A DNA stretch of 27,748 nucleotides from Anaerolineae bacterium (lineage in GTDB: Bacteria > Chloroflexota > Anaerolineae > Promineifilales > Promineifilaceae), in contig JANQSK010000446.1 in assembly GCA_028284105.1 (NCBI GenBank), positions 1 through 27,748 on the forward strand, read 5' to 3'. A program made the translations under genes and the position numbers. Every line of letters starts with the position of its first letter. The stretch's first letter is position 1. A model generated the notes under the pieces. It was given only the letters and a program-made list of their open reading frames with translations. It was not told the DNA's origin and searched no databases. This document shows, in pieces, positions 339 through 27,748 of this stretch.

Positions 339-1706
339 ATGGAACAACCGTTAACCGTCATTGGGGGCGGTCTGGCTGGTACAGAAGCAGCGTGGCAAGC
401 CGCATCGCTTGGCGTACCTGTTCGGCTTTATGAAATGCGCCCCCAAAAAAATACACCTGCTCACGTCACAAATAAGCTCGCAGAGCTTGTTTGTAGCAAT
501 TCGCTTGGCTCTTATTTGCCTCATAAAGCCCCTGGTGTGCTCAAGGCAGAATTACGCGGCTTGGGCTCAATGATTTTAGAATGTGCCCAACAAACGGCCG
601 TTCCTGCCGGCTCCTCTCTTGCTGTAGATCGTGAAGGGTTTGCGGAGCTGGTCACTGAAAAAATTGATAAAACCCCCCTAATTGAGCTTGTCCGCGAAGA
701 AGTCACCAAAATTCCTAACACCCCTACAATCATTGCCACAGGTCCACTGACTTCAGATGCGCTTGCTAAAGAAATTCAGGCACTTTCTGGACAAGAGTAC
801 ATGTATTTTTATGATGCGTTGTCCCCGATTGTGCACTACGAATCAATTGACTTTTCAATTGCATACCGTCAATCTCGATATGATAAGGGGGAACAAGTTG
901 ATGGTGATTACATCAACTGCCCCATGACCAAAGAAGAGTATGATCGGTTTGTCGCCGCTTTACTCGAAGGGGAGCTGATCACGCTCAAACAATTTGAGCA
1001 AGAAGACCAGCACTTTTTTGAAGGGTGTATGCCTATTGAGCAAATAGCGCGCCGAGGGGAAAAGGCGTTGGCTTTTGGTCCGATGCGACCGGTTGGCTTA
1101 ACTGACCCGCGCACAGGAAAACGGCCGTTTGCTGTGGTTCAACTCAGACAAGATAATTTGATGGGTTCCTTATTTAATATCGTTGGTTTTCAAACAAATT
1201 TAAAGTGGGGTGAGCAGCGCCGGATATTGCGACTTATTCCCGGATTGGAAAAAGCTGAATTTTTACGGTATGGCATGATGCATCGCAATACGTACATCAA
1301 TGCGCCACAGCTTTTGCATCCTACACTTCAATATCGTGGTCGTTCAAATCTCTATTTTGCAGGACAGATTACAGGCGTTGAGGGATATATGGGAAACGCT
1401 GCGACTGGCTTGCTTGCAGGTTTGAATGCTGCTCGAATGATGAAAGGCAAATTACCTGTCATCATGCCAACCATGACAATGCTTGGTGCGCTGTGCCATT
1501 ATGTAACTCACGCCGAAGCAAAAAACTTTCAACCTATGAAGGCTAATTTTGGCCTATTTCCTATGCCACCCAATAATTTGCCTAAATCTGACCGATATCG
1601 ATGGTATAGCGAAAGAGCATTGACCAATATGCGGCGATTTACACGATCAAATGGGATTAACTATGATCGCGTGGTTGCTGAAGCAGTAACGGAGATGGAG
1701 AAATAG
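339..1706 (+). CDS. trmFO: Methylenetetrahydrofolate--tRNA-(uracil-54)-C5-methyltransferase TrmFO (Gid)
   Basis: FAD-binding [14 protein letters not shown], plus [49 protein letters not shown] and [12 protein letters not shown] place the start at ATG 339 ([11 protein letters not shown]) rather than 282, because homologs begin just before the GxGxxG motif. Confidence 0.95.
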
Positions 1707-1707
1707 C

Positions 1708-2901
1708 TTGTCCCAAAGCTTGAAGCTGTGGCTTCGACAAGAATCGGCATCCTTGTGTGCGGCCGTTTTTGAGAATACACCCCCAGCCTTATCCTTGAAT
1801 CATGATGATGTGTCACAGTTTCTGGCAACATTAGCTGATCATGTTGGGCTGCATTCCGAATTTCAACTTGCTGCAGTTCAGGGTTGGGCATTAACGGCGA
1901 TTGGACAAGATGGTCCTCGCTCCCGTGATTGGCTCTGGGTTCTCCGTTTGCTAAAAGAAGCTTTGATCAAAGCCTTAGACCAAAATATGTCCCCTTCAGA
2001 GGCGCTTAAAAGTTGGCGGGGTCTTGATGAGTTTTTGACCTATGCCATGATTGAGGCCTCTCAGCTAGCAACTGACTTTGAACGCGCAAACTTGTTAGAA
2101 CAAATTGTGCAGCTTCGGAACCAACAAGAGATATTTGAGCGGAGCAAATCTAATTTCATCAATGTGGCAGCGCACGAATTGCGCACCCCTCTTACAATTT
2201 TGGAAGGGTATGCGAATATGATTCGCGCAGAGGCTGAAGAAGGTTCTCGATTCCACATTTACACAGAGGGGCTGGGGAACGGTTTTCGCCGGATGCATGA
2301 AATTATTGGAGATATGATTGATGCATCTTTGATTGATCTCGGTTCTGTCGAGCTCAAGGTGCGCCAAATTAACCTTGAATCCACCATCCGCCTAGTAACT
2401 GATAAATTACAAAAGATTTTTGCAGAGCGAAAAGTTGAATTAATAGTCAGTCCATTCTATGTTGATTCTGAAACCTATGGTGATGAAGAGCGCTTGGCAA
2501 AAGCGTTTACGAAGGTCATCATGAATGGCTTAAAATACACTCCCGACAATGGGCAAGTCAATATTACAGCCGCTTTCATTCGGCAAGATGAAGCATCTGA
2601 TGAGCTAGCAGGGTATATTGACGTTCAAATTAGCGATAGCGGCATTGGAATTGCCCCTGAAAATCAAGACCTCATCTTTAACAAGTTTGCCAGCACGTCT
2701 GCTTATGAACTGCACTCGTCAAGCAAAACAAATTTTAAAGGGGGTGGTGCAGGTTTAGGTCTCGCCATTGTCAAGGGGATTATTGAAGCGCACGAGGGTC
2801 GTATATGGGCAGAAAGCCCTGGCTATGATGAAGAAAAGCTGCCCGGAACAACTTTTCATATTGAGTTGCCAATTTGGATCAATCAGCCGGAAATTGAATA
2901 A
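1708..2901 (+). CDS. Soluble sensor histidine kinase (N-terminal helical domain + HisKA + HATPase_c)
   Basis: H-box FINVAAHELRTPL, N-box KVIMNGLKYT, G1 DSGIGI, F-box IFNKF and G2 GGAGLGLAI. TTG start with GGAG 7 nt upstream, 1 nt after the trmFO stop. No obvious TM segment. Confidence 0.9.
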   Translation: MSQSLKLWLRQESASLCAAVFENTPPALSLNHDDVSQFLATLADHVGLHSEFQLAAVQGWALTAIGQDGPRSRDWLWVLRLLKEALIKALDQNMSPSEALKSWRGLDEFLTYAMIEASQLATDFERANLLEQIVQLRNQQEIFERSKSNFINVAAHELRTPLTILEGYANMIRAEAEEGSRFHIYTEGLGNGFRRMHEIIGDMIDASLIDLGSVELKVRQINLESTIRLVTDKLQKIFAERKVELIVSPFYVDSETYGDEERLAKAFTKVIMNGLKYTPDNGQVNITAAFIRQDEASDELAGYIDVQISDSGIGIAPENQDLIFNKFASTSAYELHSSSKTNFKGGGAGLGLAIVKGIIEAHEGRIWAESPGYDEEKLPGTTFHIELPIWINQPEIE

Positions 2902-2978
2902 CGAATTTAGAGTAAAAGACCGTTGGTACCCGTTTATTATACTTGCCAATGCTCTTTGCTCTTGAATAGAGGATATTT

Positions 2979-4592
2979 ATGGATATTAAAGTTGAAGTCA
3001 AACCAACGGCCGTAACTGTATTTCCTGACAGAGCGCGTGTTACTGCAGTGGGTGAATGTGACGTTTCAGCAGGCAGCCATAAATTGCTTGTGACCCAACT
3101 CCCATTAACAATGCAGCCTGATTCCTTACGAGTCTCTGGGAAGGGAACAACAAGCGTACAAATATTGAGTGCTGACGTTAAGCGAGAATTTTTTGATGAG
3201 GCACCCCAAAAGAATGTTAGAGAATTAGAAGCGGAAATTGAATCGTTAAGCGATCAGCTACGGGATGTTGATGATCAAAAAGCAGGTTGGGAGGCACACG
3301 GCCGTTACCTTGAAGGGATGCGGCAAGCAACCGGCGCTTATGCCAAAGGGCTTTCTCGTGGCACTTCTCAGGTTGAAGATCAACTCAAGATTGTGGCTTT
3401 TTTGCAAGAGCAGGACAGTGCAATGCGAACGGCCGTTTCGAATCTTGATAAGGAAGCCCGTCAGCTGAACAAACAGATTGAGAAGCTAAAATTAGAGCTA
3501 GGTCAGCAATCATCGAGACGACGTGGCAAGCAAATGTATCAAGCCGTGATTGACATTCAGGTTTCAGGTGAAGGCACATTTTCCCCTGAAGTGACCTATG
3601 TTGTTAATCAGGCGAGCTGGCGACCTCTGTATGATGTTCGTTTAAAAACAATAGGTGTGTCGCTTCCTGAAATTGGGATATCAACTTTGGCAGAAATCAC
3701 CCAGCGAACCGGGCAAAGCTGGGATGCGGTTGCTTTATCTGTATCAACTGCCCGACCTGCGCTCAATCAACGATTACCTAAACTCAACCCTTGGCCCATT
3801 GACCAATTCCGCAAACCCGAAATTCGTCGTCCTATGGCAATGGCCGCTCCACCAAAAGCGTCGGCGTTGAGGTCAAAAGCACGTGCCACAGAAGAAACTG
3901 AAATGGTTGGGTTTGCGGCTGAAGCAGAACCTGCTCCCGTTGAAGCTGAGGAAATCGTGGCCCAAGTTGAAGATACAGGAACGGCCGTTCGGTTTGTGGT
4001 CTCTGGCGGTTCGGATATTCCAAGCGATGGTTCACCCCATAAAACAACTTTGGCTAACTATCAGCTAGAGCCCAAACTTGATTTTGTCGCTGTTCCAAAA
4101 CACACAGATGCTGTTTACCGTCGGGCAACCACCAAAAACATCTCCGGTGCACCTTGGTTAGCTGGACAGGCTAATCTGTTTGTAGATGATGAATTTATTG
4201 GCAAGACATCCATTGACTATACGGCCAAGGGTGGGGAAATAGAGCTATTGCTTGGTGTTGAAGATCGCATCACGATTAAACGTGAAATGACACGGCGAGA
4301 TGTGGATAAGAAAATGTTAAGCGATCAGCGTCGAATCCGCTTTGGCTATGAGATTGAGGTTGAGAATTTGCTCGATACGGCCGTTAGAGTTGAAATTCAA
4401 GATCACATCCCGATTTCTAGACATGAGCAAATCAAAGTCAAGATGCAAAAAACGGACCCTGACCCACAAGATGTAAGCGACATGAATTTGATGGAGTGGT
4501 TGTTACCATTAGCTTCCAAACAAAAATCAACGATTGCCTACGAATTCTTAGTAGAACATCCACGCTCGCTACAGGTGGCGGGCTTACCGTGA
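2979..4592 (+). CDS. DUF4140/DUF4139 (mucoidy inhibitor MuiA-like) protein
   Basis: N-terminal VTVFPDRARVT, a central coiled coil, YVVNQASWRPLYDVRL, AEITQRTGQSW...LSVSTARP, and C-terminal GEIELLLGVE...VRVEIQDHIPIS. SD-like AGAGGA upstream. Confidence 0.85.
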   Translation: MDIKVEVKPTAVTVFPDRARVTAVGECDVSAGSHKLLVTQLPLTMQPDSLRVSGKGTTSVQILSADVKREFFDEAPQKNVRELEAEIESLSDQLRDVDDQKAGWEAHGRYLEGMRQATGAYAKGLSRGTSQVEDQLKIVAFLQEQDSAMRTAVSNLDKEARQLNKQIEKLKLELGQQSSRRRGKQMYQAVIDIQVSGEGTFSPEVTYVVNQASWRPLYDVRLKTIGVSLPEIGISTLAEITQRTGQSWDAVALSVSTARPALNQRLPKLNPWPIDQFRKPEIRRPMAMAAPPKASALRSKARATEETEMVGFAAEAEPAPVEAEEIVAQVEDTGTAVRFVVSGGSDIPSDGSPHKTTLANYQLEPKLDFVAVPKHTDAVYRRATTKNISGAPWLAGQANLFVDDEFIGKTSIDYTAKGGEIELLLGVEDRITIKREMTRRDVDKKMLSDQRRIRFGYEIEVENLLDTAVRVEIQDHIPISRHEQIKVKMQKTDPDPQDVSDMNLMEWLLPLASKQKSTIAYEFLVEHPRSLQVAGLP

Positions 4593-4604: not shown

Positions 4605-5912
4605 ATGACAAAAGTTTACCCAACTGCACCACCACGAGAGAAAGCCTATTTGGTGGGTGCTGGATCAAAAAATGAACGGCCGTTGTTGCCTATCGAGGAT
4701 AGCGTTGAAGAACTGGGCCGTTTAGCAGATACTGCCGGATTAGAAGTTGTTGGCCAAGCCATCCAGCGTTTTAATCGACCCGATCGCTCAACCTATATTG
4801 GCTCAGGTAAAGTCGAAGAAGTCAAGATGATGGTTGAGGAATTAGGGGCTGGCGTTGTCATCTTTGATGATGAGCTTTCACCACGTCACCAGAGAGAACT
4901 TGAGAAGATCTTTGGTGAAGAGATCAAAGTCTTGGATAGAACGGCTTTGATTCTTGATATTTTTGCCCTACACGCCAACACGGCAGAAGGGAAGCTTCAA
5001 GTAGAGTTGGCTCAGCTTGAATACCGTGTCCCCCGTTTAACGCGCATGTGGACTCACTTGGCTCGACAGGCAGGTGGTCGTGCAGGTGGGGCTGGCGGAG
5101 GTGTCGGTTTGCGTGGTCCTGGTGAAACCCAGCTAGAAGCTGACCGCCGAGAAATCGGTCACCGTATAAGCTTTGTAAAAGATCAGCTTGAAAAAGTTCG
5201 CGCACGACGTGAACGTCATCGTATGAAGCGCCAACAAACAGAATTGAAAGTAGTTGCGATTGTTGGTTACACCAATGCCGGAAAATCAACCTTGCTCAAC
5301 CGACTGACGGATGCTAATGTGCTTTCCGCTGATATGCTATTTGCGACGCTTGATCCAACAACAAGAAAAGTTCAAATGCCAGGCGGGCGAGAAGTCCTTT
5401 TTACGGATACGGTAGGATTTATTCAAAAATTACCAACCCATATTGTGGCTTCTTTCCGTGCAACGCTTGAAGAGATTAAAGATGCAGATATGCTGCTGCA
5501 CGTTGTAGATTCAACCCATCCCAATGCCGGAGCTCAAATTGATTCGGTCGAAGATACGCTAGCAGAGCTTGAAGTTGATCATTTACCCGTTGTTGTTGCT
5601 TTGAATAAAATTGACCAGCTGCCAGAAGGGCTTCCTCCTGATGCAAATTTAGATATTGATGCACCTATGGTGGGGGTATCAGCCCATACCGGGGAAGGGA
5701 TTGAGGATCTTCTCACCACAATCGAAGCTGTGATGACGCGCTACATGACTGAAATTATGATTGAGCTTCCTTATGCAAAAGGAGATTTGCGCTCACTGTT
5801 TTATGAACGTGGTCAAGTTGATAGTGAAGAGCCCAATGATCATGGTTTGCGGATTTACGGCCGTATTCCTCATCGTCTGGTGCCTTATTTTGAACCCTAT
5901 TTGGTGAACTAA
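4605..5912 (+). CDS. hflX: Ribosome-splitting GTPase HflX
   Basis: YIGSGKVEE, DRTALILDIFA, EGKLQVELAQLEY, GLRGPGETQLE, G1 GYTNAGKST, LFATLDPT, G3 DTVGF and G4 NKID. Confidence 0.97.
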   Translation: MTKVYPTAPPREKAYLVGAGSKNERPLLPIEDSVEELGRLADTAGLEVVGQAIQRFNRPDRSTYIGSGKVEEVKMMVEELGAGVVIFDDELSPRHQRELEKIFGEEIKVLDRTALILDIFALHANTAEGKLQVELAQLEYRVPRLTRMWTHLARQAGGRAGGAGGGVGLRGPGETQLEADRREIGHRISFVKDQLEKVRARRERHRMKRQQTELKVVAIVGYTNAGKSTLLNRLTDANVLSADMLFATLDPTTRKVQMPGGREVLFTDTVGFIQKLPTHIVASFRATLEEIKDADMLLHVVDSTHPNAGAQIDSVEDTLAELEVDHLPVVVALNKIDQLPEGLPPDANLDIDAPMVGVSAHTGEGIEDLLTTIEAVMTRYMTEIMIELPYAKGDLRSLFYERGQVDSEEPNDHGLRIYGRIPHRLVPYFEPYLVN

Positions 5913-6160: not shown

Positions 6161-7336
6161 ATGCAGCAACTACTAAATATTTCAAACCATTCAGATATTC
6201 AAAATATTAAAGACAGAATTCGTTCTGAACAAGATGCTCTAATTGATTTAATTGTGCAGATTCAGCAAATACCTGCACCGACGTTTGATGAGGGGACCCG
6301 GGCGCTTTTTATTGAAGCAACGATGAAGCAATATGGTCTCGAGGATGTCAATAAAGATAACATTCATAATGTTTACGGCCGTTATCCCTTTTGTTCAAAC
6401 CCAGCTGGCCCTCCAATTATCATTTCTGCGCATAGTGACACGGTGTTTCCGCATGAAACAGATCTCTCTTATCATAAAAAAGGGTCAAAATTATATGGTC
6501 CAGGTATAGGAGATAATTCGACTGGTGTTGCTGGTATTTTATTTTTAGCAAAGCTCCTCATTGAGGAAAAAATCACATTGAAAAACCCTGTTTGGTTTGT
6601 ATCCAATGTGGGTGAAGAGGGTCTTGGGGATTTAGTTGGCATGAGAGCGGTCGTAGACCGGTTTGGTGAAAAAGCGAAATACATTGTGATTGAAGGTGGT
6701 CTTTTTGGACAGCTTTCTCATCAAGCGATTGGTGTGCAACGCTTCAAAATCTCTGTCGAAACGGAAGGTGGACACTCTTGGGGTAGCTTTGGGAAGACAA
6801 GTGCTATTCATGAATTAGGTCGACTCATTACCCTGATTGCTGATATGAAGGTTCCAAATTCACCAAAAACAACCTTTAACGTCGGGATGATTGAGGGAGG
6901 CACCTCAATCAATACTATTGCGCAACGGGCACACATGCTCCTTGATTTACGCTCTGAACATACAGAAACCCTCGATAAGCTCGTTAAAAGCGTCAAAGCG
7001 ATGGTTCAAAAAGCCAATCGTCAAAGCGATATGCGCACCACTTTTTCAATGGAACAAATTGGTAATCGACCCGCGGGGCAAGTACATCGAAATTCAGAAC
7101 TCGTCCGCCAGGCAATTGAATGTTTGAAGATGGTTGGGCGTTCAAGACCAATATTTATTACTAGTTCAACAGATTGCAATATACCGTTGAGCAGAGGGTA
7201 TGAGTCGGTGTGCATAGGTCTAACGGAATCAAATTTTGCCCACCGCTTAGATGAGCATATTGATGTGACCAACTTGCCTGTTGGCATGCATCAGATGATG
7301 CTTCTGTTGCTTTCAGCTGCGCATTTTGGTGAATGA
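6161..7336 (+). CDS. M20/M25/M40 family metallo-hydrolase
   Basis: ISAHSDTV (HxD), GPGIGDNSTG, NVGEEGLG (EE motif), TEGGHSWG, TTFNVGMIEGGTSINTI, STDCN and AHRLDE. Confidence 0.9.
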   Translation: MQQLLNISNHSDIQNIKDRIRSEQDALIDLIVQIQQIPAPTFDEGTRALFIEATMKQYGLEDVNKDNIHNVYGRYPFCSNPAGPPIIISAHSDTVFPHETDLSYHKKGSKLYGPGIGDNSTGVAGILFLAKLLIEEKITLKNPVWFVSNVGEEGLGDLVGMRAVVDRFGEKAKYIVIEGGLFGQLSHQAIGVQRFKISVETEGGHSWGSFGKTSAIHELGRLITLIADMKVPNSPKTTFNVGMIEGGTSINTIAQRAHMLLDLRSEHTETLDKLVKSVKAMVQKANRQSDMRTTFSMEQIGNRPAGQVHRNSELVRQAIECLKMVGRSRPIFITSSTDCNIPLSRGYESVCIGLTESNFAHRLDEHIDVTNLPVGMHQMMLLLLSAAHFGE

Positions 7337-8115: not shown

Positions 8116-9059
8116 GCAAGAACTCAAACCCCCGATTATCAATCATCACGGTGAGTTGGAATGTGAGCAAACTGCTTCACGACTGTTTGAGTTCGGTAGA
8201 GGCTGTTCGAGACGCTCTCCATTTAGAAATGGTTGTCGTTGATAGTGCATCATCTGACGATACACCTGATATGGTTGAGCGTGATTTTCCTTGGGTCAAT
8301 TTGATTCGCTGCACTGAAAACGCTGGATTTCCGAAAGGCAATAACATTGGTATTGAAGCATCGACAGGTGAATATGTCATTTTGCTCAATCCTGACACGG
8401 TCGTAATTGAAGATGCATTATCACAGCTTTGTGATTATCTAGATGAGCATCAAGACGTTGGGGTCGTGGGTCCCAAGTTGTTAAATCCCGATGGCACGAT
8501 TCAATCATCACGACGTCGATTTCCTACCTTCCTAACAGGTGTTTTTGAAAGCACTTGGCTCCAAGAGTCAGCCCCAAAACAAATCTTAGATCATTATTAC
8601 GCGCTTGATTTGCCGGATGATGAAACGGCCGTTGTTGATTGGGTGATGGGGGCTGCGCTATTAACGCGACGCTCGATCATTGACCGAGTAGGTGGGCTAG
8701 ACGAAGCTTATTTTATGTACTCAGAAGAACTGGATTGGTGTCGCAGAATTAAAGAGGCGGGGTGGGAAGTGGTTTATTTACCTTCTGCCCAAATCATCCA
8801 TCACCTTGGTAAAAGTAGCGAACAGGCTGTCACGCATCGGCACATTAACTTTAATAAAGCAAAATTGCGTTATTTCAGAAAGTATCATGGGATAGTTGTT
8901 GCATTTGCATTACGTGCCTTTTTGTTGTTAACTTATCTTCAACAGCTACTGTTAGAGGTATTCAAAGGAATAATTGGCCATAAACGGCCGTTGCGCTGGC
9001 AACGCGCAAAATCATATTGGCAGGTTGTTCGATCCGGGTTGCGTCCTGCGGGATATTAA
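8112..9059 (+). CDS. Glycosyltransferase family 2 (WbbL/rhamnosyltransferase-like)
   Basis: SIITVSWN, VVVDSASSDDT, NAGFPKGNNIG, LLNPD, WVMGAALL, YFMYSEELDWC. ATGA overlap with tatD. Confidence 0.9.
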   Translation: MSKNSNPRLSIITVSWNVSKLLHDCLSSVEAVRDALHLEMVVVDSASSDDTPDMVERDFPWVNLIRCTENAGFPKGNNIGIEASTGEYVILLNPDTVVIEDALSQLCDYLDEHQDVGVVGPKLLNPDGTIQSSRRRFPTFLTGVFESTWLQESAPKQILDHYYALDLPDDETAVVDWVMGAALLTRRSIIDRVGGLDEAYFMYSEELDWCRRIKEAGWEVVYLPSAQIIHHLGKSSEQAVTHRHINFNKAKLRYFRKYHGIVVAFALRAFLLLTYLQQLLLEVFKGIIGHKRPLRWQRAKSYWQVVRSGLRPAGY

Positions 9060-15755: not shown

Positions 15756-15813
15756 CCGTAACAAGAGGGGCTACGGCCGTTCCTCCACACCCTTTAAGAA
15801 TGCTGGAGCCTGC

Positions 15814-18476: not shown

Positions 18477-18591
18477 TTCAGTGTTCCGAAGTTTCTAAAT
18501 TGAAAAACATTTTAGCAAAAGCTTTGGAACCTCGATGAAACGAAATTTAAAGCTGTCATTTTATTCAAAACAGGAACTTCGTTTCACTTAA
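18477..18591. mobile_element. 115-bp MITE-like element, copy B (inverted relative to copy A)
   Basis: The reverse complement aligns to 54-169: the first 27 nt are identical, and 88/97 positions match outside an 18-19 nt variable middle. One terminal TTAA is changed to TTCA. Confidence 0.7.
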
Positions 18592-18649
18592 ATGCCATGT
18601 TAAACGGCCGTTATTTGCTATCGTCTATGTAAATGATTTAGGACATAAA

Positions 18650-19268: not shown

Positions 19269-20573
19269 TTATTCTAGATTTAGAATTTTTCCTCTCACAA
19301 TAGTCGTTTTCGGCCATCCCTTTAGCAGTAAACCCTCATAGGGTGTCCAACCAGCCGTTTCATGGAGCGTTTGGCTTGAAATTGTTTTTTCAAGATTGGG
19401 ATCAAAAACAACGATATCTGCATCATAGCCAACGCCAATATGCCCTTTGTTATGAAATCCTGTTAACTTAGCAGGGGCAGTCGCACAAAGATTGACCCAC
19501 TGATTGAGAGATAAACGGCCGTTTACCACCCCCTGATACACACTAGCAAATCGCATTTCAATTGAAGGAACCCCACCAGGAATTTGACTAAAATCATTGA
19601 GGCCGGTTGCTTTTTCTTCTTTTGTGAATGGACAATGATCCGTGCTAACAATTTGCAAGTCGTTGTTCGCTAAAGCATGCCATAACTTATCATTTTCAGG
19701 TTTAGGCCTGAGGGGAGGGGAGCAAACAGGCAAAGTTCCGTCCACGCCAGGACGGTCATAAAGCTCTTGCGACAAAAATAGATATTGGGGGCAAGTTTCT
19801 CCTGTGACAGGGATCCCTTTTGCTCTAGCAGCTTGAATTTCTTGGACAACTGCATCACAGGAAACATGGAATATGTGGATTGGTAATCCGACGCGTTCAG
19901 CAATTTTAATGACGCGGTGTACTGATTCTGCTTCAAATTCTTCCGGTCGACTGCGTGAATGCCAGTGTGGAGAAACACGGCCGTTTGCCACATTTTCTTC
20001 TATCAGAGCACAGATGATGTCCCAATTTTCAGCATGAATGACAGGAAGCCCGTTCACTTTTTTGATGGCTTGAAAGGCCTTATAAAGTGCATCATCTGTT
20101 AAGCGATGTCCATAGGCCATATAAAGTTTGTACGTTTTGCACCCTGCTTCTGCAACCTCAGGAAGCTGTTCCAATTTAGGAATATCCGTCGGGGTAATCG
20201 TCATATGAAGACCAAAGTCAATGACGCTTTTGCTTTTCGCTAAGGTCTGCCGCTCTAGGTACGCTTCTAACAGAGGCTGTTCGGGTTTGGCCTCGACAAA
20301 GTCTATGATTGTCGTTGTGCCACCCAAAGCCGCAGCTCGGGTGCCGCTATAAAAATCGTCTGTTGAAGTGAATTTGCCAATTGGCATTTCAAGGTGGACA
20401 TGAATGTCAACACCGCCAGGGATGACGAGTTTGCCATAAGCGTCAATTTCATTCGTACCTTGAAGAGAATTCCCAATTGCGGCAATTTTATCACCTTGAA
20501 TGGCGACATCAGTTTGGATGGTTGAAACGGCCGTTACGATCGTTCCGTTTTTGATGACTAAATCAAACGGCAT
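19269..20573 (-). CDS. hydA: Dihydropyrimidinase / D-hydantoinase
   Basis: LVIKNGTIV, PGGVDIHVH (HxH), GTRAAALGGTTTIIDF, KLYMAY (carboxylated Lys), IHAEN, FHVS, STDHCPF, PGGVPSIE and GYDADIVVFDP. Start ATG 20573, 4 nt after the upstream stop. Confidence 0.88.
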   Translation of the reverse strand: MPFDLVIKNGTIVTAVSTIQTDVAIQGDKIAAIGNSLQGTNEIDAYGKLVIPGGVDIHVHLEMPIGKFTSTDDFYSGTRAAALGGTTTIIDFVEAKPEQPLLEAYLERQTLAKSKSVIDFGLHMTITPTDIPKLEQLPEVAEAGCKTYKLYMAYGHRLTDDALYKAFQAIKKVNGLPVIHAENWDIICALIEENVANGRVSPHWHSRSRPEEFEAESVHRVIKIAERVGLPIHIFHVSCDAVVQEIQAARAKGIPVTGETCPQYLFLSQELYDRPGVDGTLPVCSPPLRPKPENDKLWHALANNDLQIVSTDHCPFTKEEKATGLNDFSQIPGGVPSIEMRFASVYQGVVNGRLSLNQWVNLCATAPAKLTGFHNKGHIGVGYDADIVVFDPNLEKTISSQTLHETAGWTPYEGLLLKGWPKTTIVRGKILNLE

Positions 20574-20577: not shown

Positions 20578-22773
20578 CTACTCAGGTATTGAGAGCCAGA
20601 CGGGGACACCGCTAAAAGCGGCGTTGCCCGTCAAAACATCCATTGTCATTTCATCTGTTAGATCATTGATGGAAACACCGGCATGTTTTTCAGCAACCTG
20701 AAGCTGGGTTCCCTTCCGATTGTGACCCCAGCCGTGTGGAATGCTAACAACACCAGGCATCATCTCATCGCTAACTTCAACGGGGAGCTGAACGTGACCT
20801 ACTCTGGAGTTAACGACAGTCATCATGCCGTCTTCAAGTTGATGCTTGTCTGCATCTTTCGGACTAATCAGCAACGTGCAACGATTTTTCCCTTTGGTTA
20901 AACGAGGACTGTTGTGCATCCAAGAGTTGTTGCTTCGAAGATGACGCCGTCCAATGAGCGTTAATGGTTCTTTTGGGGTTTTGCTAAATTTAGAGTTGAG
21001 TCGCTCCAAATCTTCGACTAACAACTGAGGGGCGAGCTGAATACGGCCGTTTTCAGTCATCAAACGTACATTGAACATTGGCTTGTGAGGACCTAAATCA
21101 ATACCGTGTTTGCTATTGATCAATCTTTGGACCGTAAGCCCTTGCTGGCCATTTGTCTGGAGCTTCTTTTGATTAATACCTTTAGCACCGTATGGGCCAA
21201 ATCGAAGACCTAAGTCTATGATTTTTCGAGGAGGAAGCCGCCGTGGGAGGTCTAATTTGTTCCGTTGACGATTTGTGTCGTGATTGTTTTCAAAGCGGAA
21301 ACGTAACTCTTGGAAGATTTCCCAATCATGTTTTGCCCCTTCAACCGGTTCAAAAAGCGCTTCAGAATATTTCGAACTGTTTCTGACCGCTAAATTATGG
21401 AAAACAAGATCATAATGTTCAGTTTCAAGCCCGGTTGTTGGTGGTAGGATGATGTTAGCATGCCGGGTCGTTTCATTAATGTAAATGTCTATTGACACCA
21501 TGAAATCTAAATTTTCAAACGCTTCATCAAGCTGGCGACCATTCGGACTAGATAAGACGGGATTTCCCGCAATTGTCACCATGCTTTTGATTTGAGCTGG
21601 CCCTTCGGTCAATATCTCTTCTGCTAAACCGGAAACAGGTAACTCGCCGCCAAATTCAGGTAATTTGCGAACGGCCGATTGCCAGCGATTAAATCGCTGC
21701 TTGCCAGGTCTATTTCCACCCAAGACAGTGATGACATCGATTGCTGGTGCAGGGAACATGGCGCCTCCTGGAGAGTCCATATTGCCAGTAACTAGATTGA
21801 TCACGTTGACAAGCCATTGACAAAGCCCCCCAAATTCTTGAGTTGAAACACCCATACGACCGTAACAAACGGCCGTTTTTGAAGCGCAAAAATCACGTGC
21901 GATTTGTTTGACCGCTTCTGCTGGAATACCTGTTTTGTCCGCAACTGATTCAGGTGAGAAATCAGCAACTATATCTTGAATGACAGAGAGTCCATCCATT
22001 TGTGAGGCAAGCTCACCTGGATTATCAAGCCCTTCTGCATGAATGGTGTGGAGAAGGGCGAGTAGAAAGAGAGCGTCTGCACCTGGTTTAATGAAGTGGT
22101 GTTCGTCGGCCAAAACGGCCGTTTCTGTGCGTCGAGGATCGATGACAACTATTTTTCCACCTCGTTTTTGAATACCCTGTAGCCGTTTTTTAATGCCGGG
22201 CGCCGTCATAATACTGCCATTTGAAGCCAAAGGATTTGCTCCTAGCATCAACATGTAGTGTGTTCGATCAACATCAGGAATGGGTAAAAGCTGTGGATGA
22301 CCAAACATGAGATCGGCAGCAAAATGATGCGGGAGTTGATCAGCTGATGTCGCAGAGAATCGGTTTTTTGTACGAAGTGAACGGACGAAGGGGGGACTAT
22401 AGATCATGGCTCCCATATTGTGTACATTGGGATTGCCCTGATAAACGCCTACCGCATTATTGCCATGTTTTGCTTGGACTGCTTGAATGCCAGCTACCAC
22501 TTCAGAAAAAGCCTCTTCCCAGCTCATTTGTTGCCAACCCGTTTCTGTGCGGCGAACTGGTAGTTTGAGGCGGTCAGGATCGCGATAGATATCTTCGAGT
22601 GCGGTTGCTTTTGGACAAATATGACCTTGGCTAAAAGGGTCATTTTTATCACCACGAATTGCTATGATATCTTGGCCACTGTATTCAATTTCCAAGCCGC
22701 ACATTGCCTCACACAAATTGCAAGTGCGATAATGGCGTTGTGTTTCGCGTTTCTCTTTATTTTTCGTCCTCAT
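20578..22773 (-). CDS. Molybdopterin (bis-MGD/DMSO reductase superfamily) oxidoreductase, single-subunit uncharacterised clade
   Basis: TCNLCEAMCGL...GHICPK (4Fe-4S), DPDRL, GANPLASNG, IVVIDPRRTETA, DIYINETTRHA, LIGRRHLRSNNSW and C-terminal PGVVSIPHGWG. SD AGGAAGG upstream. Confidence 0.92.
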   Translation of the reverse strand: MRTKNKEKRETQRHYRTCNLCEAMCGLEIEYSGQDIIAIRGDKNDPFSQGHICPKATALEDIYRDPDRLKLPVRRTETGWQQMSWEEAFSEVVAGIQAVQAKHGNNAVGVYQGNPNVHNMGAMIYSPPFVRSLRTKNRFSATSADQLPHHFAADLMFGHPQLLPIPDVDRTHYMLMLGANPLASNGSIMTAPGIKKRLQGIQKRGGKIVVIDPRRTETAVLADEHHFIKPGADALFLLALLHTIHAEGLDNPGELASQMDGLSVIQDIVADFSPESVADKTGIPAEAVKQIARDFCASKTAVCYGRMGVSTQEFGGLCQWLVNVINLVTGNMDSPGGAMFPAPAIDVITVLGGNRPGKQRFNRWQSAVRKLPEFGGELPVSGLAEEILTEGPAQIKSMVTIAGNPVLSSPNGRQLDEAFENLDFMVSIDIYINETTRHANIILPPTTGLETEHYDLVFHNLAVRNSSKYSEALFEPVEGAKHDWEIFQELRFRFENNHDTNRQRNKLDLPRRLPPRKIIDLGLRFGPYGAKGINQKKLQTNGQQGLTVQRLINSKHGIDLGPHKPMFNVRLMTENGRIQLAPQLLVEDLERLNSKFSKTPKEPLTLIGRRHLRSNNSWMHNSPRLTKGKNRCTLLISPKDADKHQLEDGMMTVVNSRVGHVQLPVEVSDEMMPGVVSIPHGWGHNRKGTQLQVAEKHAGVSINDLTDEMTMDVLTGNAAFSGVPVWLSIPE

Positions 22774-22924: not shown

Positions 22925-23719
22925 TTATAAATTGTCTTCTAGAAATTGAATTGCTTCTTGCCAAGCGTCACCCGCAATCCCTGGCTGGTTAAAGTTATCT
23001 TCTGTAATAAATGCGTGGCCCACTCCAGGATAAATCGAAATTTGATTGACGATGTTAAGACTGTCGAGCGCTGCCTCAAATTCGATGACATCCTCTACAA
23101 AGATAGATTGGTCTTCTTCCGCAAAGATGCCAAGGATGGGTTGATTATCAACTAACGGCCGTAATAATTCAGGATTTGTTTCAACAGCCCCATAATACAT
23201 GATCGTCATCGCTAACCGCTCTGATTGGCGTAAACCGAGCTGTAATGAGTGCTCACCCCCAAAACAAAAACCCATCGTTGCCGTTCGTTCTGCATCTGCT
23301 TCGGGAAGAGTCATTAGGTAATCCAGAGCAACATCAAGGTCGCCAAAAACTTGTTCTTCTGGTGTAGTCAGTCTTAGCCAAATGGCGCGTGGAATTTGTG
23401 AAGTTAGATTGCCTCGATATGCATCAGCTGCGAGCACAATGTAGCCTTCATCTGCGAGGGCATCTGCCAAAACGATGATGCCTTCATTTAGTCCCCACCA
23501 TTCGTGGATCATCAGAACGGCTGGAAATGGTCCCTCACCTTCCGGTTTTGCCAAATAGCCATGTAGTTCTGTCCCTTCAGCAACACTGTAGGTCACATTT
23601 GTAAAGTCAGTTGATGATTGTCCAAATAAAGCGTCAAAAATGATAAATCCCGCCAATGTTAAAACGAAAAATCCAAGTAGGCCCACAAGGCCAAGTACAA
23701 TTCTTTTAATCCATTTCAT
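22925..23719 (-). CDS. Dienelactone hydrolase family protein with an N-terminal membrane anchor
   Basis: IHEWWGLN, GFCFGG (Cys nucleophile), FAEEDQSI (Asp), and YPGVGHAF (His). N-terminal hydrophobic helix IVLGLVGLLGFFVLTLAGFIIF. Confidence 0.9.
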   Translation of the reverse strand: MKWIKRIVLGLVGLLGFFVLTLAGFIIFDALFGQSSTDFTNVTYSVAEGTELHGYLAKPEGEGPFPAVLMIHEWWGLNEGIIVLADALADEGYIVLAADAYRGNLTSQIPRAIWLRLTTPEEQVFGDLDVALDYLMTLPEADAERTATMGFCFGGEHSLQLGLRQSERLAMTIMYYGAVETNPELLRPLVDNQPILGIFAEEDQSIFVEDVIEFEAALDSLNIVNQISIYPGVGHAFITEDNFNQPGIAGDAWQEAIQFLEDNL

Positions 23720-23917: not shown

Positions 23918-25006
23918 CTAGACTGAAAATTCTTCGTACTCGTTTTCGTCAGGGAGTCCCCAAACGGCCCAAAATTTGCCTTCTTTTGGTTGCATGATGG
24001 CTGCCCCACATGATTCTACGTGGAAGGGTGGTTTTGAGCGGGTGCAAATCGCTGAGGGTTCACGCGTTACGGCGATGAGATCGTTGATGGTTAACGGCCG
24101 TTTTTCCAAAAGCTCATTTGCCATATTGAGTCGATTTTCAGAGCTCATTTGAGACGATTCAGGACGTTCTTGGGCATATTCGAGGGTTTCAGGTAATAGG
24201 CAGTGGTTTGTGTGGCTAATGGGGGCTTCTTCAAGTGGCGTTATTTCGCAATGTGAAGACATCGCTTCCACATTGTAACCAGTCCCGTTTTTATCAAAGA
24301 TGAGATAGTTGTGAGCCCCTGCCAGCTTCGCTTCCGTAATGCATTTCAATGCATCATCTGCATTATCTTGCTGGAGTGCTTTGCGAACGACAAAAGGCCA
24401 AGTGACACCGACTTGGCCATCAGTGGCCATAAGATTATTGATGCCGATACAGACGCCGTGTTCATTCATGCCAATTTGGCCAATGCATCCCGTTGTCGTA
24501 AACACCAAAGATTTGGGTTGGTCAGGTGTGTCAACTTCCAGCAGTATAACAAATTCAGTTGCTGTATCATGCATATCCCAAGTTTGCCCAAAAAAGCCTG
24601 CGCCATCTGCCGTATTGTCTGGCACTAAAAAGGCCGTGCAATCATCGATGGGTAATCGATCTAAAACAGGTTCGCGTTGTTTTCGATATTCGCCATAAAC
24701 TGTATCAACGAAGTCTGTAAAACCACCCACAATGATCAGTTCGCCCAATGATAAGCCGGTTGCTTTTGACATGCCGCGAAGTTCATCCATTAAGTCCGGC
24801 GCATACGCTTCATGATCAGGGACACACTTTTCAGCGAGATCGATTACTTCACCTGGTTCTAGTTGATGCCCACTCCAAAGTCCGCCACACACGATTTGAA
24901 CACGCTCCTTCGCGTAGCGAATAATATCTTCACGATGCGACAAACCATGTTGATAGCCCATATCAAATGGGGAGCCGCTTGTTTTTACAACGCGTATTTT
25001 TGCCAT
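23918..25006 (-). CDS. C45 family autoproteolytic Ntn-hydrolase/acyltransferase (acyl-CoA:6-APA acyltransferase-like)
   Basis: DELRGMSKATG, DCTAF (N-terminal nucleophile Cys after self-cleavage), GQTWD, GQIGMNEHGVCIGINNL, and HTNH. Start ATG 25006 with AAGGA SD, 13 nt after the mttB stop. Confidence 0.87.
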   Translation of the reverse strand: MAKIRVVKTSGSPFDMGYQHGLSHREDIIRYAKERVQIVCGGLWSGHQLEPGEVIDLAEKCVPDHEAYAPDLMDELRGMSKATGLSLGELIIVGGFTDFVDTVYGEYRKQREPVLDRLPIDDCTAFLVPDNTADGAGFFGQTWDMHDTATEFVILLEVDTPDQPKSLVFTTTGCIGQIGMNEHGVCIGINNLMATDGQVGVTWPFVVRKALQQDNADDALKCITEAKLAGAHNYLIFDKNGTGYNVEAMSSHCEITPLEEAPISHTNHCLLPETLEYAQERPESSQMSSENRLNMANELLEKRPLTINDLIAVTREPSAICTRSKPPFHVESCGAAIMQPKEGKFWAVWGLPDENEYEEFSV

Positions 25007-25019
25007 GATCTTTTCCTTT

Positions 25020-26549
25020 TTATGAAGTTGCTCGACGACGAGCATGCTTCCTTTGTCGTTTCTTACTGCCGCTGCTTTGGGTTACCCGATGTACAGGAAT
25101 TTCAGGAAGGGGGCGTTCTTTATCTTTTAATCCGTCAATGATGAGTTGCCGCATTGTTTCATCAATGAGGGGATCGATCGGTTGTTGTTGATAGCTATTG
25201 AGCAAGTCGTTAACGGCCGTTGCTGCCCGTTCTTCTAATTTCGGACTACCTCGTTTTGCCCAATTTTCCCGATTAGAACGATCTGTGACGGGATGGGGCA
25301 TGTAAAGGTGATTCGGCCAATGCTCAAGCGTATGCTCTGATGTGATGAGATGTTGTTCGCGCATAAGCTCATCTATCAAATGATCAACCGGCAAGTCATC
25401 GATAATTTCCATTTCGCGTGTAAGGTGGAGCGCTTGTCCGCATAAATCGTTATCCATGACCAATTTTGTGAGGCTAAAGACCATAACAAAATCGAGCATA
25501 CCCGGACCTGATACTGAGTTGACACCGGCTAAGGCAGCCAGTAAAGCACTGCCGAACGTTTCTGCACCGGCTTGAGCATCTAAGAATTTGCTATCGCTCA
25601 GAGCCATATAAGATTGGGTCGGCAATTTAAGATATTTCGCTACTTCAACATAGGCGAGGTCAAGATGAAGCGCATCGATACCTAACATGGGGGACGAGGC
25701 TTCTTTCATGTGGAAAGCGGCTGGTGCGCCACCAAACAACACAGGTGCGCCAGGTTTGATTATTTGCGCCATGGTGATGCCAGCGAGCACATCAACGGTG
25801 TGGAATACTGTTGCCCCAACAAGTGTGACTGGTGCAATTAGCCCCATTAAAGTGACTGGCACAATTTCAATAGGAATACCCCATTCAACGCAGTCAAGCA
25901 GATTTTGGCACGAATCTTCGCTATATCTAAAGTTACCCGTGGCCGTAATTGTGAAAATTGACATCGGCTTGGCAATGAGATCTTCCTTGTCTTTGCGGAA
26001 TAGCTTCATCATTTCGGCCATGCGCGGAACGCCGTGCTCAGTGAATGCCCCTGAAACAACGGGTTTCTTGGAATGTTTTAAACAGAGATAGAGCCGCCAA
26101 GCATCCGATACATCCGCTTCAATGTCATCATTGGTTGAAAAAGCGGTAGCTAAGTAGGCGATGTTTTCAAGTTGATCTGTTATTTTGACATATTCAACAA
26201 AATCGGCCGTGTTGGCTAATCGAGTTTGCTGCGTGCGATGGTCTAAAATCTTTAAACCGCTAGATGCTGGTGTAAAGTGAACGTTATTCCCACCGATGGT
26301 TGTGTAATAGTTCCCTTCTCGATCAAACAAGTCAAATGTTTCCGGGCAAGAGGCAATGGCTTTATCTATGACATCAGTTGGAAACAAAATCCGACTGCCA
26401 GATTCATCGGTTGGGAGGCCCGCATCAAGCATGCGTTGAAATAGCTCTTTGCTCCTGACTTCTATACCAATTGTTGATAAAACCCGTTTTGATTCGGATA
26501 AGATTTTTTCAATAAGTGATTCTGAAATTACTTTGACATGTGGGCGCAT
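25020..26549 (-). CDS. Trimethylamine methyltransferase (MttB) superfamily protein, non-pyrrolysine (MtgB-like)
   Basis: [57 protein letters not shown], and KLVMDND. The 509-codon frame has no in-frame TAG. Confidence 0.9.
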
Positions 26550-26640
26550 AGTTTTAGCTCGTTAATTATTATTTCTAATTGGAAGTTTAACATGGGGCTT
26601 TTTGACGGGCGAATCCATAATTTGTGGCTAAAATGAAATT

Positions 26641-27432
26641 ATGAGTGACTCCCATTTAACGATAGTAGCGATTCATGGAAATGGCGGCGGCTCATTCCGT
26701 TTTTCGTTTTTAATGGAGCATATCCCTAAGCATGTCAATTTTGTGGCTGTCACCTTACCAGGATTTGCTGGCGTGCCATTAAATCATTCAGTCTCTTCTG
26801 TTGAAGATTTAGCAGAGATTTTGCATGAAGAGCTTTGTGGGTCTGAATTGCCTGAGGGATGGCTCTCCTCCCAATCGTGGACGAGTTTGGAGAAACGGCC
26901 GTTTATTCTATTAGGTACTGGCATTGGGGGGTCTATTGCCCTTCAGTATGCTCAAAAGTACGCTCATTATTTAGCGGGGTTAATTTTACACGCACCTGTG
27001 GGAACAAGATTAGATACGCGTTGGTTCCCAAGATTAATGAGCTTACCCATTAATCGAAAAATTGGGAAGATGGTTTTTACATCTTCCTTGATACGTCCTT
27101 TTTGGCGGAAAGTATTATTTACAAAGCCCCTTCCAAAAGAGGAAGAAACGCAATTTTTTGACGAGTATCGGCAATGTCAATTATTTGGTGAACTGTTTGA
27201 TTGGATTACGCCAGAGTGGTTCAATACGCTCAAACCTGTTGCAATACCTGCCGCTTTATTGTGGGGAGAGCGTGAACGCGTGCTAACAGTCGACCAACTA
27301 GACGACTATAAAGCATTATTACTTGAACCTATTATCCACACGGAACCCGATTGGGATCATTTCCCTATGTTGGATACACCTAAACAGTTTGTTGAGGTGC
27401 TAACGTCACTGAGTCTGAAAATTTCTGAATAA
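26641..27432 (+). CDS. Alpha/beta-hydrolase-fold protein lacking the canonical Ser nucleophile
   Basis: VAIHGNGGG, LPGFAG, LLGTGIGGSIALQYA (elbow with Gly at the nucleophile position), LILHAP, LLWGERE, and DHFPML. Confidence 0.85.
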   Translation: MSDSHLTIVAIHGNGGGSFRFSFLMEHIPKHVNFVAVTLPGFAGVPLNHSVSSVEDLAEILHEELCGSELPEGWLSSQSWTSLEKRPFILLGTGIGGSIALQYAQKYAHYLAGLILHAPVGTRLDTRWFPRLMSLPINRKIGKMVFTSSLIRPFWRKVLFTKPLPKEEETQFFDEYRQCQLFGELFDWITPEWFNTLKPVAIPAALLWGERERVLTVDQLDDYKALLLEPIIHTEPDWDHFPMLDTPKQFVEVLTSLSLKISE

Positions 27433-27748
27433 GCTCTGATGAAAATTGAAGAATGTCTTGCGTGGGGTACTTTGAAATGAACCGACAGGAAAATGTTTCT
27501 GGGATATCAAATTCGTTGAGGATAGGAACGGCCGTGTCCATTGCTGCCATGTAGCCTTTGTTTTGATTGATCATTGAAAAAAGGAGATGGGTTCGGGGGT
27601 CTGTGAGTAGAGAGGCAGTCGATTCTGTGCCGCCGGGAATAATAACGAGATCGTTGTCTGTATTTGAAGATTTCAACTCGCTCAGAGTGATATCTCCTTT
27701 TATATAAACACCGTGTTTGCTGTTTACAAGCCTTTTTGAAAGACTAAC
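27380..27748 (-). CDS. 3' part of a DJ-1/PfpI-like protein (5' end outside the window), with Asp at the catalytic Cys position
   Basis: The frame is open from the window edge: ...VNSKHGVYIKGDITLSEL...DLVIIPGG...KGYMAAMDTAV. The PGG-to-AAxx spacing is 27 aa, as I recall for human DJ-1. Overlaps the convergent alpha/beta-hydrolase gene by 53 nt. Confidence 0.7.
   Translation of the reverse strand, partial: VSLSKRLVNSKHGVYIKGDITLSELKSSNTDNDLVIIPGGTESTASLLTDPRTHLLFSMINQNKGYMAAMDTAVPILNEFDIPETFSCRFISKYPTQDILQFSSELIQKFSDSVTLAPQQTV

Follow-up and report, generated by a model that had tools for sequence, protein, structure and literature searches.

The window, the whole 27,748-nucleotide stretch of DNA analyzed here, carries trmFO/GidA-family, DUF4139, hflX, M20 peptidase, GT2, GT4, NACHT-FGE and molybdopterin oxidoreductase genes, and running through these and their spacers, from 594 to 27535, are 39 exact copies of the octamer ACGGCCGT (1 per 710 bp). 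Dinucleotide-preserving shuffles of the window (n = 100) give a mean of 0.12 copies and a maximum of 1. The hexamer CGGCCG occurs 42 times against 3.3 expected, and its three instances outside the octamer, GCGGCCGT, ACGGCCGA and TCGGCCGT, each differ from it by one outer base. Most copies lie within the longer form WACGGCCGTW (35/39), and 21/39 within AACGGCCGTT. On recounting, these values reproduce all of the figures of a preliminary description of this DNA (39, 35, 21 and about 42), including its remark that the three non-matching hexamers are single mismatches. By reading phase, 19 copies encode Thr-Ala-Val (TAV, phase 0), 8 x-Gly-Arg (phase 1) and 9 x-Arg-Pro-x (phase 2), and 3 are intergenic. 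The sites are given below; the strand is "." throughout, rows are exact ACGGCCGT unless marked near-miss, and G001 is a congener of the source genome (G000).

594–601: TAV, trmFO/GidA-family gene; ACGGCCGT in 11/30 aligned genomes, G/TCGGCCGT in 8 more
1121–1128: K-R-P-F (silent codon choice), trmFO; same site in 16 genomes of many genera
1759–1766: near-miss GCGGCCGT, outer base off; full word at this position in G001
3006–3013: TAV, DUF4139 gene
3298–3305: H-G-R
3429–3436: TAV
3981–3988: TAV
4377–4384: TAV
4676–4683: E-R-P-L, hflX
5857–5864: Y-G-R, hflX
6375–6382: Y-G-R, M20 peptidase gene
8625–8632: TAV, GT2 gene
8984–8991: K-R-P-L
9823–9830: TAV, GT4 gene
10138–10145: TAV; window-only, AGCGCGAT in G001
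10407–10414: G-R-P-L; window-only, ACGGCCGC in G001
10507–10514: TAV
10612–10619: TAV
11798–11805: Y-G-R; window-only, ATAGCCGT in G001
13167–13174: TAV, NACHT-FGE gene
13561–13568: N-G-R
14202–14209: TAV
15380–15387: K-R-P-F
15554–15561: L-R-P-Y
15773–15780: intergenic
16267–16274: intergenic
17401–17408: TAV
17939–17946: TAV
18604–18611: intergenic, directly past a MITE-like copy
19515–19522: N-G-R, minus-strand gene
19977–19984: N-G-R
20527–20534: TAV
21043–21050: N-G-R, molybdopterin oxidoreductase gene
21671–21678: near-miss ACGGCCGA, outer base off
21869–21876: TAV
22115–22122: TAV
23155–23162: L-R-P-L
24094–24101: K-R-P-L
25213–25220: TAV
26203–26210: near-miss TCGGCCGT, outer base off
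26895–26902: K-R-P-F
27528–27535: TAV

A word placed and held at the DNA level

The source genome, that of a marine member of the Chloroflexota, consists of assembled contigs from a coral metagenome run, and ACGGCCGT is its top-ranking 8-mer, with 7,791 copies against 58 expected from composition (~130-fold), or about 1 per 850 bases, spread over 1,287 contigs with a chi2/df of 1.09 across contigs. The excess thus extends well beyond this one contig, and it also withstands the codon-aware null model under which the preliminary description had allowed that it might vanish: ORFs hold 7,187 copies against ~510 (14-fold) when synonymous codons are shuffled with the protein and codon usage preserved. 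Most genera are likewise rich in the word across 151 sampled genomes of the family, with >100 independent assemblies carrying it; the relatives of the source genome are Anaerolineales/Chloroflexota MAGs.

Genome-wide, 92% of copies lie within ORFs, divided among the three frames as 4002/2070/1104, with a further 615 outside ORFs at a spacer density of 0.80 copies per kb. The word encodes 94% of all Thr-Ala-Val and 91% of all NGR tripeptides in the genome, and Thr-Ala-Val itself occurs 4,249 times, 5–7 times as often as its permutations (602–858). ACGGCCGT therefore overrides codon choice and many amino acid positions, and its use of all three frames, its presence in spacers and this coding bias together place it at the level of the DNA and not of the peptide.

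Sites are also retained in place. In the congener G001 (~75% DNA identity), 27 of 30 window sites are kept, compared to a background 8-mer identity of 11%, and the trmFO sites are shared across genera. Beside the 7,791 perfect copies, the genome has only 23–97 of each inner one-base variant; outer T and G variants reach 172–362 and outer C/G only 31–37. Taken together, ACGGCCGT shows the 15- to 300-fold genome-wide excess of a short GC-rich palindrome, the occurrence in non-coding DNA and in all coding frames, the orthologous-site conservation above background and the bias of one-base deviants to the first and last positions that characterize the HIP class. It is a HIP-type highly iterated palindrome, placed and held at the DNA level, and only a force acting on the DNA itself, be it drive or selection, fits these observations.

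Other genera of the family carry dialect words, namely TCGGCCGA, GCGGCCGC and TGCCGGCA, the last of these (with a GCCGGC core) being the word of genera g15 and g19, and there are whole genera without the 8-mer. Genera poor in the 10-mer AACGGCCGTT have different flanks or dialects, as judged by 8-mer counts and local k-mer censuses. Neither the dialects nor the flank asymmetry described below featured in the preliminary description, and our literature search found no paper linking CGGCCG or an iterated palindrome to Chloroflexota.

Flanking sequence and polar footprint

Around the word lies a degenerate halo, RAAACGGCCGTTTY, with no conserved flank past ~3–4 nt of the genomic copies. The two flanks vary independently, and where one outer base is broken the flank signal is weaker on both sides of the site; recognition of the word thus appears to be dimer-like. 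Complementarity between positions −k and +k does not exceed the level predicted from their separate frequencies, by which hairpin or palindrome growth through template switching is rejected. Spacing is more even than random (CV 0.91 vs 0.99, at the short range set by a longest contig of 27.7 kb), and gaps of <100 bp number 520 against 863 expected.

Beyond the halo, each strand is enriched in G on the 5' side of the word, giving a two-sided, mirror-image asymmetry. Third-position GC skew is +0.29/−0.30 at 6–20 nt, 0.16 at 21–40 nt and 0.09 at 41–80 nt, such that the excess decays over ~40 nt with a long tail and the footprint extends past 100 nt. It does not depend on gene strand, is seen in spacers too, and is specific to the full 8-mer: neither GGCC nor any of 10 control palindromes shows it. 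Per site the effect is modest, with the expected sign in only 61% of sites, and it is weak around copies on mobile elements. The same polarity is found at TGCCGGCA, TCGGCCGA and GCGGCCGC in other genera, every 8-mer dialect showing a G excess 5' on each strand.

We considered several origins for this footprint. At 4-fold sites in the flanks, G is up by 0.089 while T is not raised. Exposed single strands would be expected to leave a C-to-T signature, and cytosine deamination of such strands is therefore not supported as the cause. The upstream/downstream covariance is 1.03, below the 1.68 of random positions, whereas a one-sided mixture should add +3.8. A one-sided replication footprint (lagging strand or fork stalling) is thereby rejected; both sides carry the expected sign in 181 of 267 contigs. 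Gyrase-type wrapping is rejected as well, since the flanks show only 3-nt and no 10.5-nt periodicity, as opposed to the 130-bp motif with ~10.75-bp periodic flanks of strong gyrase sites (PMC6379681).

Relation to HIP1 and to methylase genes

The closest known system is HIP1 (GCGATCGC) of cyanobacteria (Robinson 1995, as cited in PMC6105098), likewise an octameric GC-rich palindrome present at ~1 per kb and >100-fold over-represented, in genes in all frames and in spacers, with sites conserved between species, one-base deviants mostly at the first or last base, and spread by substitution and not insertion (PMC4390886, PMC5861425). ACGGCCGT is not HIP1 proper, however, being a different word in a different phylum; it belongs to a family of 8-mer dialects within one bacterial family, and it carries a mirror-image flank G excess that we did not find described in the HIP1 papers we read. 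A 10–90 kb periodicity along the chromosome is described for HIP1 (Xu 2018, PMC5861425), a scale for which contigs of at most 27.7 kb are too short.

The two words also differ in their methylase genes. In cyanobacteria, a cognate methylase for the inner hexamer is found wherever the HIP word is abundant (Elhai 2015, PMC4390886). For ACGGCCGT we find no cognate C5 methylase or GATC-type partner, the comparison being made by PF00145 presence and by lineage; target specificities are not readable from sequence, and unrelated methylases may share the target. PF00145 was not found in G000, G001, G008, G011, G018 and G020, among others; 8 of the 16 genera rich in the word lack it, among them genomes assembled into 7 and 9 contigs. 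A search for Vsr in five word-rich genomes (G000, G008, G011, G006 and G020) likewise found none. No N4/N6 methylase lineage tracks the word either, again compared by lineage. Neither C5 methylases, Vsr, the N4/N6 methylase of G000, the G008-type methylase group nor a 438-aa methylase-like protein of G011 follows the word. The co-occurrence with C5/N4 methyltransferases that the preliminary description had suggested looking for is thus not seen; its HIP1-like reading is borne out by the hyper-abundance, in all frames and spacers, the in-place conservation and the outer-base deviants, but gene content gives no support to the methylation link put forward for HIP1, although the site may still be marked by methylation. 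MutL is near-universal and hence uninformative; MutL_C was not found in G000 or G001, which we attribute to incomplete assemblies, as MutS domain I is present in G000.

Alternate HIPs of exceptional cyanobacteria offer a parallel to the dialects, in that another GC-rich palindrome replaces the usual word in particular lineages, for example GCCGGC (RCCGGY) in Oscillatoria PCC 10802, a core that recurs in TGCCGGCA; each of those, however, came with a methylase of that specificity (PMC4390886). Other classes of site fit less well. A Chi site is an asymmetric word with strand-biased orientation and a modest excess, whereas ACGGCCGT is palindromic and in 130-fold excess; REP/MITE-type repeats are longer imperfect palindromes or share flanks and are mostly intergenic, unlike the present copies; and a restriction-modification target is avoided in its host genome, whereas this word is enriched.

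ACGGCCGT is, then, a counterpart of HIP1 outside cyanobacteria, with sister dialects and no matching methylase gene found. For three decades HIP1 has lacked an explanation, in part because almost all cyanobacteria have a common word and a common methylase, leaving little to compare. A second phylum with the same phenomenon, at least four spellings in one family, lineages having lost the 8-mer and no shared methylase amounts to a natural experiment, in which any gene family tracking the dialect map in its presence and its sequence clusters would be a candidate writer or reader, and the flank asymmetry a second read-out.

How the word may be maintained

Our best guess, to which we assign a probability of roughly 0.4, is a dyad-symmetric site-recognizing protein combined with a strand-directed repair or recombination step starting at the site. 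A lineage-specific, dimeric protein would recognize the whole 8-mer, and a strand-directed DNA transaction would start there on either strand, for instance a nick with excision and resynthesis of a short patch, or a heteroduplex that ends there. Repair nearby, biased to keep or complete the word, would maintain sites and ratchet near-matches to full sites until ~1–2 per kb is reached. Being anchored at the site and polar, the process would also produce the mirror-image enrichment in G on the 5' side of the word. If it acts on DNA resident in these cells, low-GC accessory contigs should be poorer in the word and mobile-element contigs should carry it, as is seen. A nick-and-resynthesize ratchet is at the core of Elhai's HIP model (PMC4390886), while Xu et al. 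argue that HIP1 site conservation points to selection for function and not replenishment by repair (PMC5861425); our conservation data cannot separate the two, and the flank footprint may have nothing to do with the maintenance of the word. We suggest, more tentatively, that this is a methylase-independent system of one family, in which a genus-switching 8-bp palindrome (ACGGCCGT, TCGGCCGA, GCGGCCGC or TGCCGGCA) starts polar repair or recombination on both strands, propagating the word and imprinting the flank G/C asymmetry; if true, this would provide a tractable model for the origin of HIP-type words.

Neisseria DUS and Pasteurellaceae USS occur at ~1 per kb with a weak extended halo, are evenly spaced, distort proteins and have different dialects in related genera; recently acquired DNA has fewer of them, and they are asymmetric and read by a pilus-associated receptor. 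ACGGCCGT parallels them in density, even spacing, weak extended flanks, proteome distortion, dialects and poverty in accessory DNA, and by this analogy the word could be an uptake or recombination self-tag: a receptor or recombination factor would prefer tagged DNA, uptake and homologous replacement would spread the word (molecular drive), and dialects would follow receptor changes. Mirror-image polarity would likewise result if a single strand were taken in 3'-first from a cut at the site. We regard this as credible though doubtful, as known uptake sequences are non-palindromic and ACGGCCGT is also dense in phage- and conjugative-like contigs, which need no uptake. ComEC, found in 36 of 41 genomes searched, is equally frequent in word-free relatives and, being near-universal, says nothing either way. 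We know of no competence in this uncultured group. HIP1 does raise transformation efficiency in Synechococcus PCC 7002 (bioRxiv 10.1101/2024.09.10.611283), and a 2026 paper proposes that it is an uptake sequence (PMC13756078).

The dyad symmetry with its degenerate halo, the even spacing and the strong in-place conservation would also suit the binding site of an abundant chromosome-organizing protein (nucleoid/SMC-type), kept by ordinary selection for chromosome structure, which is how Xu et al. read HIP1 (PMC5861425). This is unlikely here: per-site selection would need to outweigh thousands of amino acid changes, sister genera use different dialects and the 8-mer has been lost from whole genera, mobile elements carry the word, the flanks lack helical periodicity, and binding leaves a polar footprint past 100 nt unexplained.

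In the Dcm/Vsr very-short-patch repair and CCWGG excess of E. coli, a repair nick beside the methylase site biases mutation towards the site; that effect is few-fold, not 100-fold. The corresponding strict Elhai/Dcm-Vsr model, with an orphan methylase marking CGGCCG and methyl-directed mismatch or very-short-patch repair converting near-matches, would account for outer-base deviants as in HIP1 (PMC4390886), all genomes searched carry one or more PF01555 methylases, and the TGCCGGCA genome G015 has one C5 methylase with a Vsr gene immediately after it, the only such pair found. Four other genomes rich in TGCCGGCA (three from genus g19, and G073) lack that pair, however, and the C5 methylase of G064 is only 30% identical. 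Beyond the genus of G000, orthologs of its sole clear methylase occur in three genera only, the remaining groups are patchy (one also in the word-free G040, one in a BglII-type restriction pair), and the products that deamination of the word would give (ATGGCCGT and similar) occur at about the level expected from composition, with no depletion. With half of the word-rich genera lacking PF00145, we consider this model improbable.

An origin in codon, dipeptide or assembly effects, or in mobile-repeat copying, can be rejected, even though the preferred frame uses common residues, given the 14-fold excess over the protein- and codon-preserving shuffle, the copies in all frames and spacers, the lack of shared flanks past ~3 nt and the number of independent assemblies. 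Because the word changes thousands of protein positions, it matters for studies of codon usage and protein evolution in these abundant wastewater and marine bacteria, and it may serve as a lineage tag for binning and for host assignment of phages and plasmids.

Abundance of the word and its effect on proteins

The 8-mer palindrome ACGGCCGT (hereafter the word, with core hexamer CGGCCG) is firmly established by our analysis as a word of the same type as HIP1, the highly iterated palindrome of cyanobacteria: it is placed at the level of DNA, is kept in place, saturates at 1–2 copies per kb, and is respelled in sister genera. A literature search returned no paper describing this word in Chloroflexota. 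A recount of the window agreed with every figure in the preliminary description, in which the likeness to HIP1 had been proposed: there are exactly 39 words (0.12 expected from dinucleotide-preserving shuffles), of which 35 read WACGGCCGTW and 21 the extended 10-mer AACGGCCGTT, and 42 CGGCCG hexamers (3.3 expected), the remaining three of which (at 1759, 21671, and 26203) carry one outer-base mismatch each. The 39 words are read as Thr-Ala-Val (19), x-Arg-Pro-x (9), or x-Gly-Arg (8), with three copies being intergenic.

The window is the longest of the 1,287 contigs in its source assembly (G000; 6.6 Mb, 43.9% GC, 78% complete); its best DNA match is a coral metagenome run, and relatives of one of its proteins come from Anaerolineales/Chloroflexota MAGs. 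Across G000, the word tops all 8-mers, with 7,791 copies where base composition predicts 58 (the runner-up palindromic 8-mer has 494), and its counts across contigs are near Poisson (χ2/df 1.09). Its consensus, including the halo, is the weakening palindrome RAAACGGCCGTTTY, with A at 72% at position −1 and 54% at −2, and 85% of all CGGCCG hexamers in G000 have A...T flanks. One-base deviants are common at the outer positions only (T 362 and G 172, with inner variants at 23–97 each), a likeness to HIP1, the one-base deviants of which show the same outer-position bias according to Elhai (PMC4390886).

With long ORFs that do not overlap standing in for genes (88% of G000), we obtained word densities of 1.23 per kb within ORFs and 0.80 per kb outside them, with all three reading phases being used (4002, 2070, and 1104 copies). 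When synonymous codons were shuffled within each gene, thus preserving every protein and its codon usage, 493–529 words were obtained compared to the 7,187 observed; this shortfall, together with the use of all phases and the copies outside ORFs, refutes the reading of the word as a coding artefact. In G000, 94% of the occurrences of Thr-Ala-Val and 91% of those of Asn-Gly-Arg are encoded by the word, where codon usage predicts ∼7%, and these tripeptides occur 4,249 times (602–858 for the five permutations of Thr-Ala-Val) and 1,549 times (209–363 for those of Asn-Gly-Arg), respectively. Therefore, several thousand protein positions have been changed by the word in this genome. An alignment of trmFO illustrates both a silent mode, in which a K-R-P-[FY] site carries the word, and a rewriting mode, in which a variable T-x-I position becomes T-A-V in word-rich lineages.

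Conservation, dialects, and accessory DNA

In the congener G001, 27 of the 30 window sites that lie within aligned blocks are exactly in place, against a background of 71–79% DNA identity and 10.9% identical aligned 8-mers; nine word sites are specific to G001. One trmFO word site is common to 16 genomes from many genera. The word is spaced more regularly than chance would give (CV 0.91 vs 0.99), with 520 gaps of <100 bp where 863 are expected. Positions −k and +k are complementary as often as multiplying their individual base frequencies predicts, so that the two flanks vary independently; this absence of excess complementarity rules out the growth of hairpins centered on the word, and recognition looks like that of two half-sites.

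Our first survey of the family counted the 10-mer and gave a falsely patchy picture, which an 8-mer count in 151 family genomes corrects. The word is present in thousands of copies in most genera, reaching a maximum of 15,492 (∼2 per kb), while genera g15 and g19 have few and instead hold 3,639–8,850 copies of TGCCGGCA. Local censuses of relatives' genomes found two further dialects, TCGGCCGA in G012 (51 per 40 kb vs 0.7 expected) and GCGGCCGC in G022 (49 per 40 kb vs 1.1 expected), as well as mixed usage in G006, enrichment of the hexamer alone, by 5- to 12-fold, in G009, G005, G002, and G025 (the last from a neighboring family), and no such word in G014 and G038. In a trmFO tree (a single gene, with several open forks), the two TGCCGGCA genera group together as the sister lineage of the remaining family, and word-poor genera are nested within rich ones, implying, as far as this one gene can be followed, that the word has been both switched and lost within the family.

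We note two further features of 400 kb samples. In G008 (57% GC; L196–L215), GGGGGGGG is the fourth commonest 8-mer, with 271 copies, and the word's halo has GG at −4/−3 and CC at +3/+4. In G015 (L176–L195), the overlapping 8-mers ATCCATCT, TCCATCTG, and CCATCTGC have ∼200 copies each, which suggests another abundant repeat, separate from the palindrome.

The G000 contigs that are significantly word-poor have low GC and encode NB-ARC/TCAD9, NACHT-FGE, Schlafen-type, and other variable, defence-like proteins:

C110, C250, C908, C999, C532, and C208 (loci L335–L340): 11–17 kb, GC 0.39–0.45, with 0–1 words vs 14–20 expected
Products on the same six contigs: TCAD9/NB-ARC, NACHT-FGE-kinase, Schlafen AlbA_2, a C39 peptidase protein, and one 3,876-aa ORF

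These contigs are either recently acquired accessory, defence-like DNA or binning contaminants. Mobile DNA also carries the word, which is found at 0.5–4 per kb on at least 21 IMG/VR contigs. Part of a 100 kb word-bearing record encodes ParA, an anti-repressor, a transglycosylase, and an FtsK-like protein, and is thus from a plasmid, prophage, or conjugative element. The mobile-element contigs L233, L272, and L216 (from IMG/VR records of 100, 66, and 40 kb) have 44–49 words per 13–15 kb, or 3–3.7 per kb. The word could help to assign mobile elements to Promineifilaceae-like hosts.

Flank asymmetry, the search for an enzyme, and a proposed mechanism

Third-codon-position GC skew near the word in G000 is +0.29 at 6–20 nt upstream and −0.30 downstream, decaying to 0.16 at 21–40 nt, 0.09 at 41–80 nt, and ∼0.035 still at 400–600 nt. 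This skew is equal for either gene strand, is seen also in spacers, and is specific to the full 8-mer, being weak with one outer base off or an inner transition. Neither ten control palindromes nor the remaining GGCC sites show it, and it disappears from CGGCCG once both outer bases differ. As averages over a palindrome are antisymmetric by construction, we tested single sites: the covariance between upstream and downstream is 1.03, compared to 1.68 at random positions; a mixture of one-sided sites predicts ∼3.8 more and is thereby ruled out. Both flanks carry the sign in 181 contigs out of 267. Together, these results show a two-sided asymmetry, one of modest size (∼2 extra G per 40 nt, with the expected sign at 61% of sites). 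At 4-fold degenerate sites, G is raised by 0.089 on the strand reading toward the word, with C, A, and T all reduced; this G excess, with T lowered, differs from the C-to-T change that deaminated single strands would leave. The same polarity is found at ACGGCCGT in G008, G016, G003, and G006, and at the dialects in G015 and G019 (TGCCGGCA), G012 (TCGGCCGA), and G022 (GCGGCCGC), and was not seen in genomes with the 6-mer excess alone. Across 323 mobile-element copies, the asymmetry tentatively reaches no more than one-fifth of its normal strength.

Turning to a cognate enzyme, neither a C5 methylase (PF00145) nor Vsr was found in G000, where absences, as in any MAG, mean "not found", short of proof. 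Its one clear N4/N6 methylase (DPPY motif) adjoins sdhB and has orthologs in G001, G010, and G023 only. Of 16 word-rich genera, 8 lack a C5 methylase; G008 and G011, assembled in 7 and 9 contigs, are among the genomes concerned. Every genome searched has at least one PF01555 methylase, but these belong to unrelated groups. One of them forms part of a BglII-type restriction pair beside parB in G011, and the group common to G008, G010, G018, G023, and G024 also turns up in word-free G040. The distribution of a methylase-like protein of 438 aa is just as patchy. Two methylase loci are of note:

L164:480–2936 (G011:C9, about 1.749 Mb): N4/N6 methylase (SPPY motif) and BglII-family endonuclease, directly downstream of parB
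L086:1489–2409 and 2410–2808 (G015:C2, about 3.161 Mb): C5 methylase and then Vsr gene, an adjacent pair

The latter pair lies between MiaB-like radical-SAM and metallophosphoesterase genes, with no restriction enzyme alongside. Vsr was found in G015 only, directly after its single C5 methylase, and four more TGCCGGCA-rich genomes (G073 and three from genus g19) lack the pair; the C5 methylase of G064 has only 30% identity to that of G015. Methylase specificity is unreadable from sequence, so it is possible that unrelated methylases share one target in word-rich genomes. Among 24 further family genomes, 22 have a match to the MutL C-terminal domain, and none was found in G000 or G001, probably through assembly gaps; MutS domain I is present in G000.

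A cognate methylase is the HIP feature that has steered ideas so far, and it is this feature that the word fails to show; the word is distinct from HIP1 itself. Our leading, still tentative reading (probability roughly 0.4) is that a dyad-symmetric protein would recognize the word, and that a strand-directed step would begin at the site and bias repair toward the word. This is essentially the methylase-linked nick-and-resynthesise ratchet of Elhai, minus the methylation requirement, and would account for the outer-base deviants, the saturation, the spread of the word to resident mobile DNA, its scarcity in newly acquired DNA, and the polar footprint on both sides. The reading is weakened by the failure to find an enzyme in the genomes searched, and it leaves unexplained why the footprint takes the form of a G excess.

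An uptake or recombination tag (uptake having also been considered in the preliminary description) likewise fits the density and evenness of the word, its dialects, and its effects on the proteome, and has recent experimental support in the case of HIP1; we put it at about one chance in four. ComEC, like MutL, is found in nearly all genomes, word-rich or word-free. That the word is a structural binding site is improbable; helical periodicity was not found in its flanks, which show the codon period only. Strict methyl-directed repair as what maintains the word is about as improbable, set beside the patchy methylases of these genomes.

A MITE-like small repeat

A 116-bp MITE-like element is present twice in the window, its copies being mutually inverted:

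54–169: first copy
18477–18591: second copy

The element has more than 40 matching places in G001 at 81–90% identity, most of which match both window copies, and so it is a genuine, active-looking small-repeat family of the genus.
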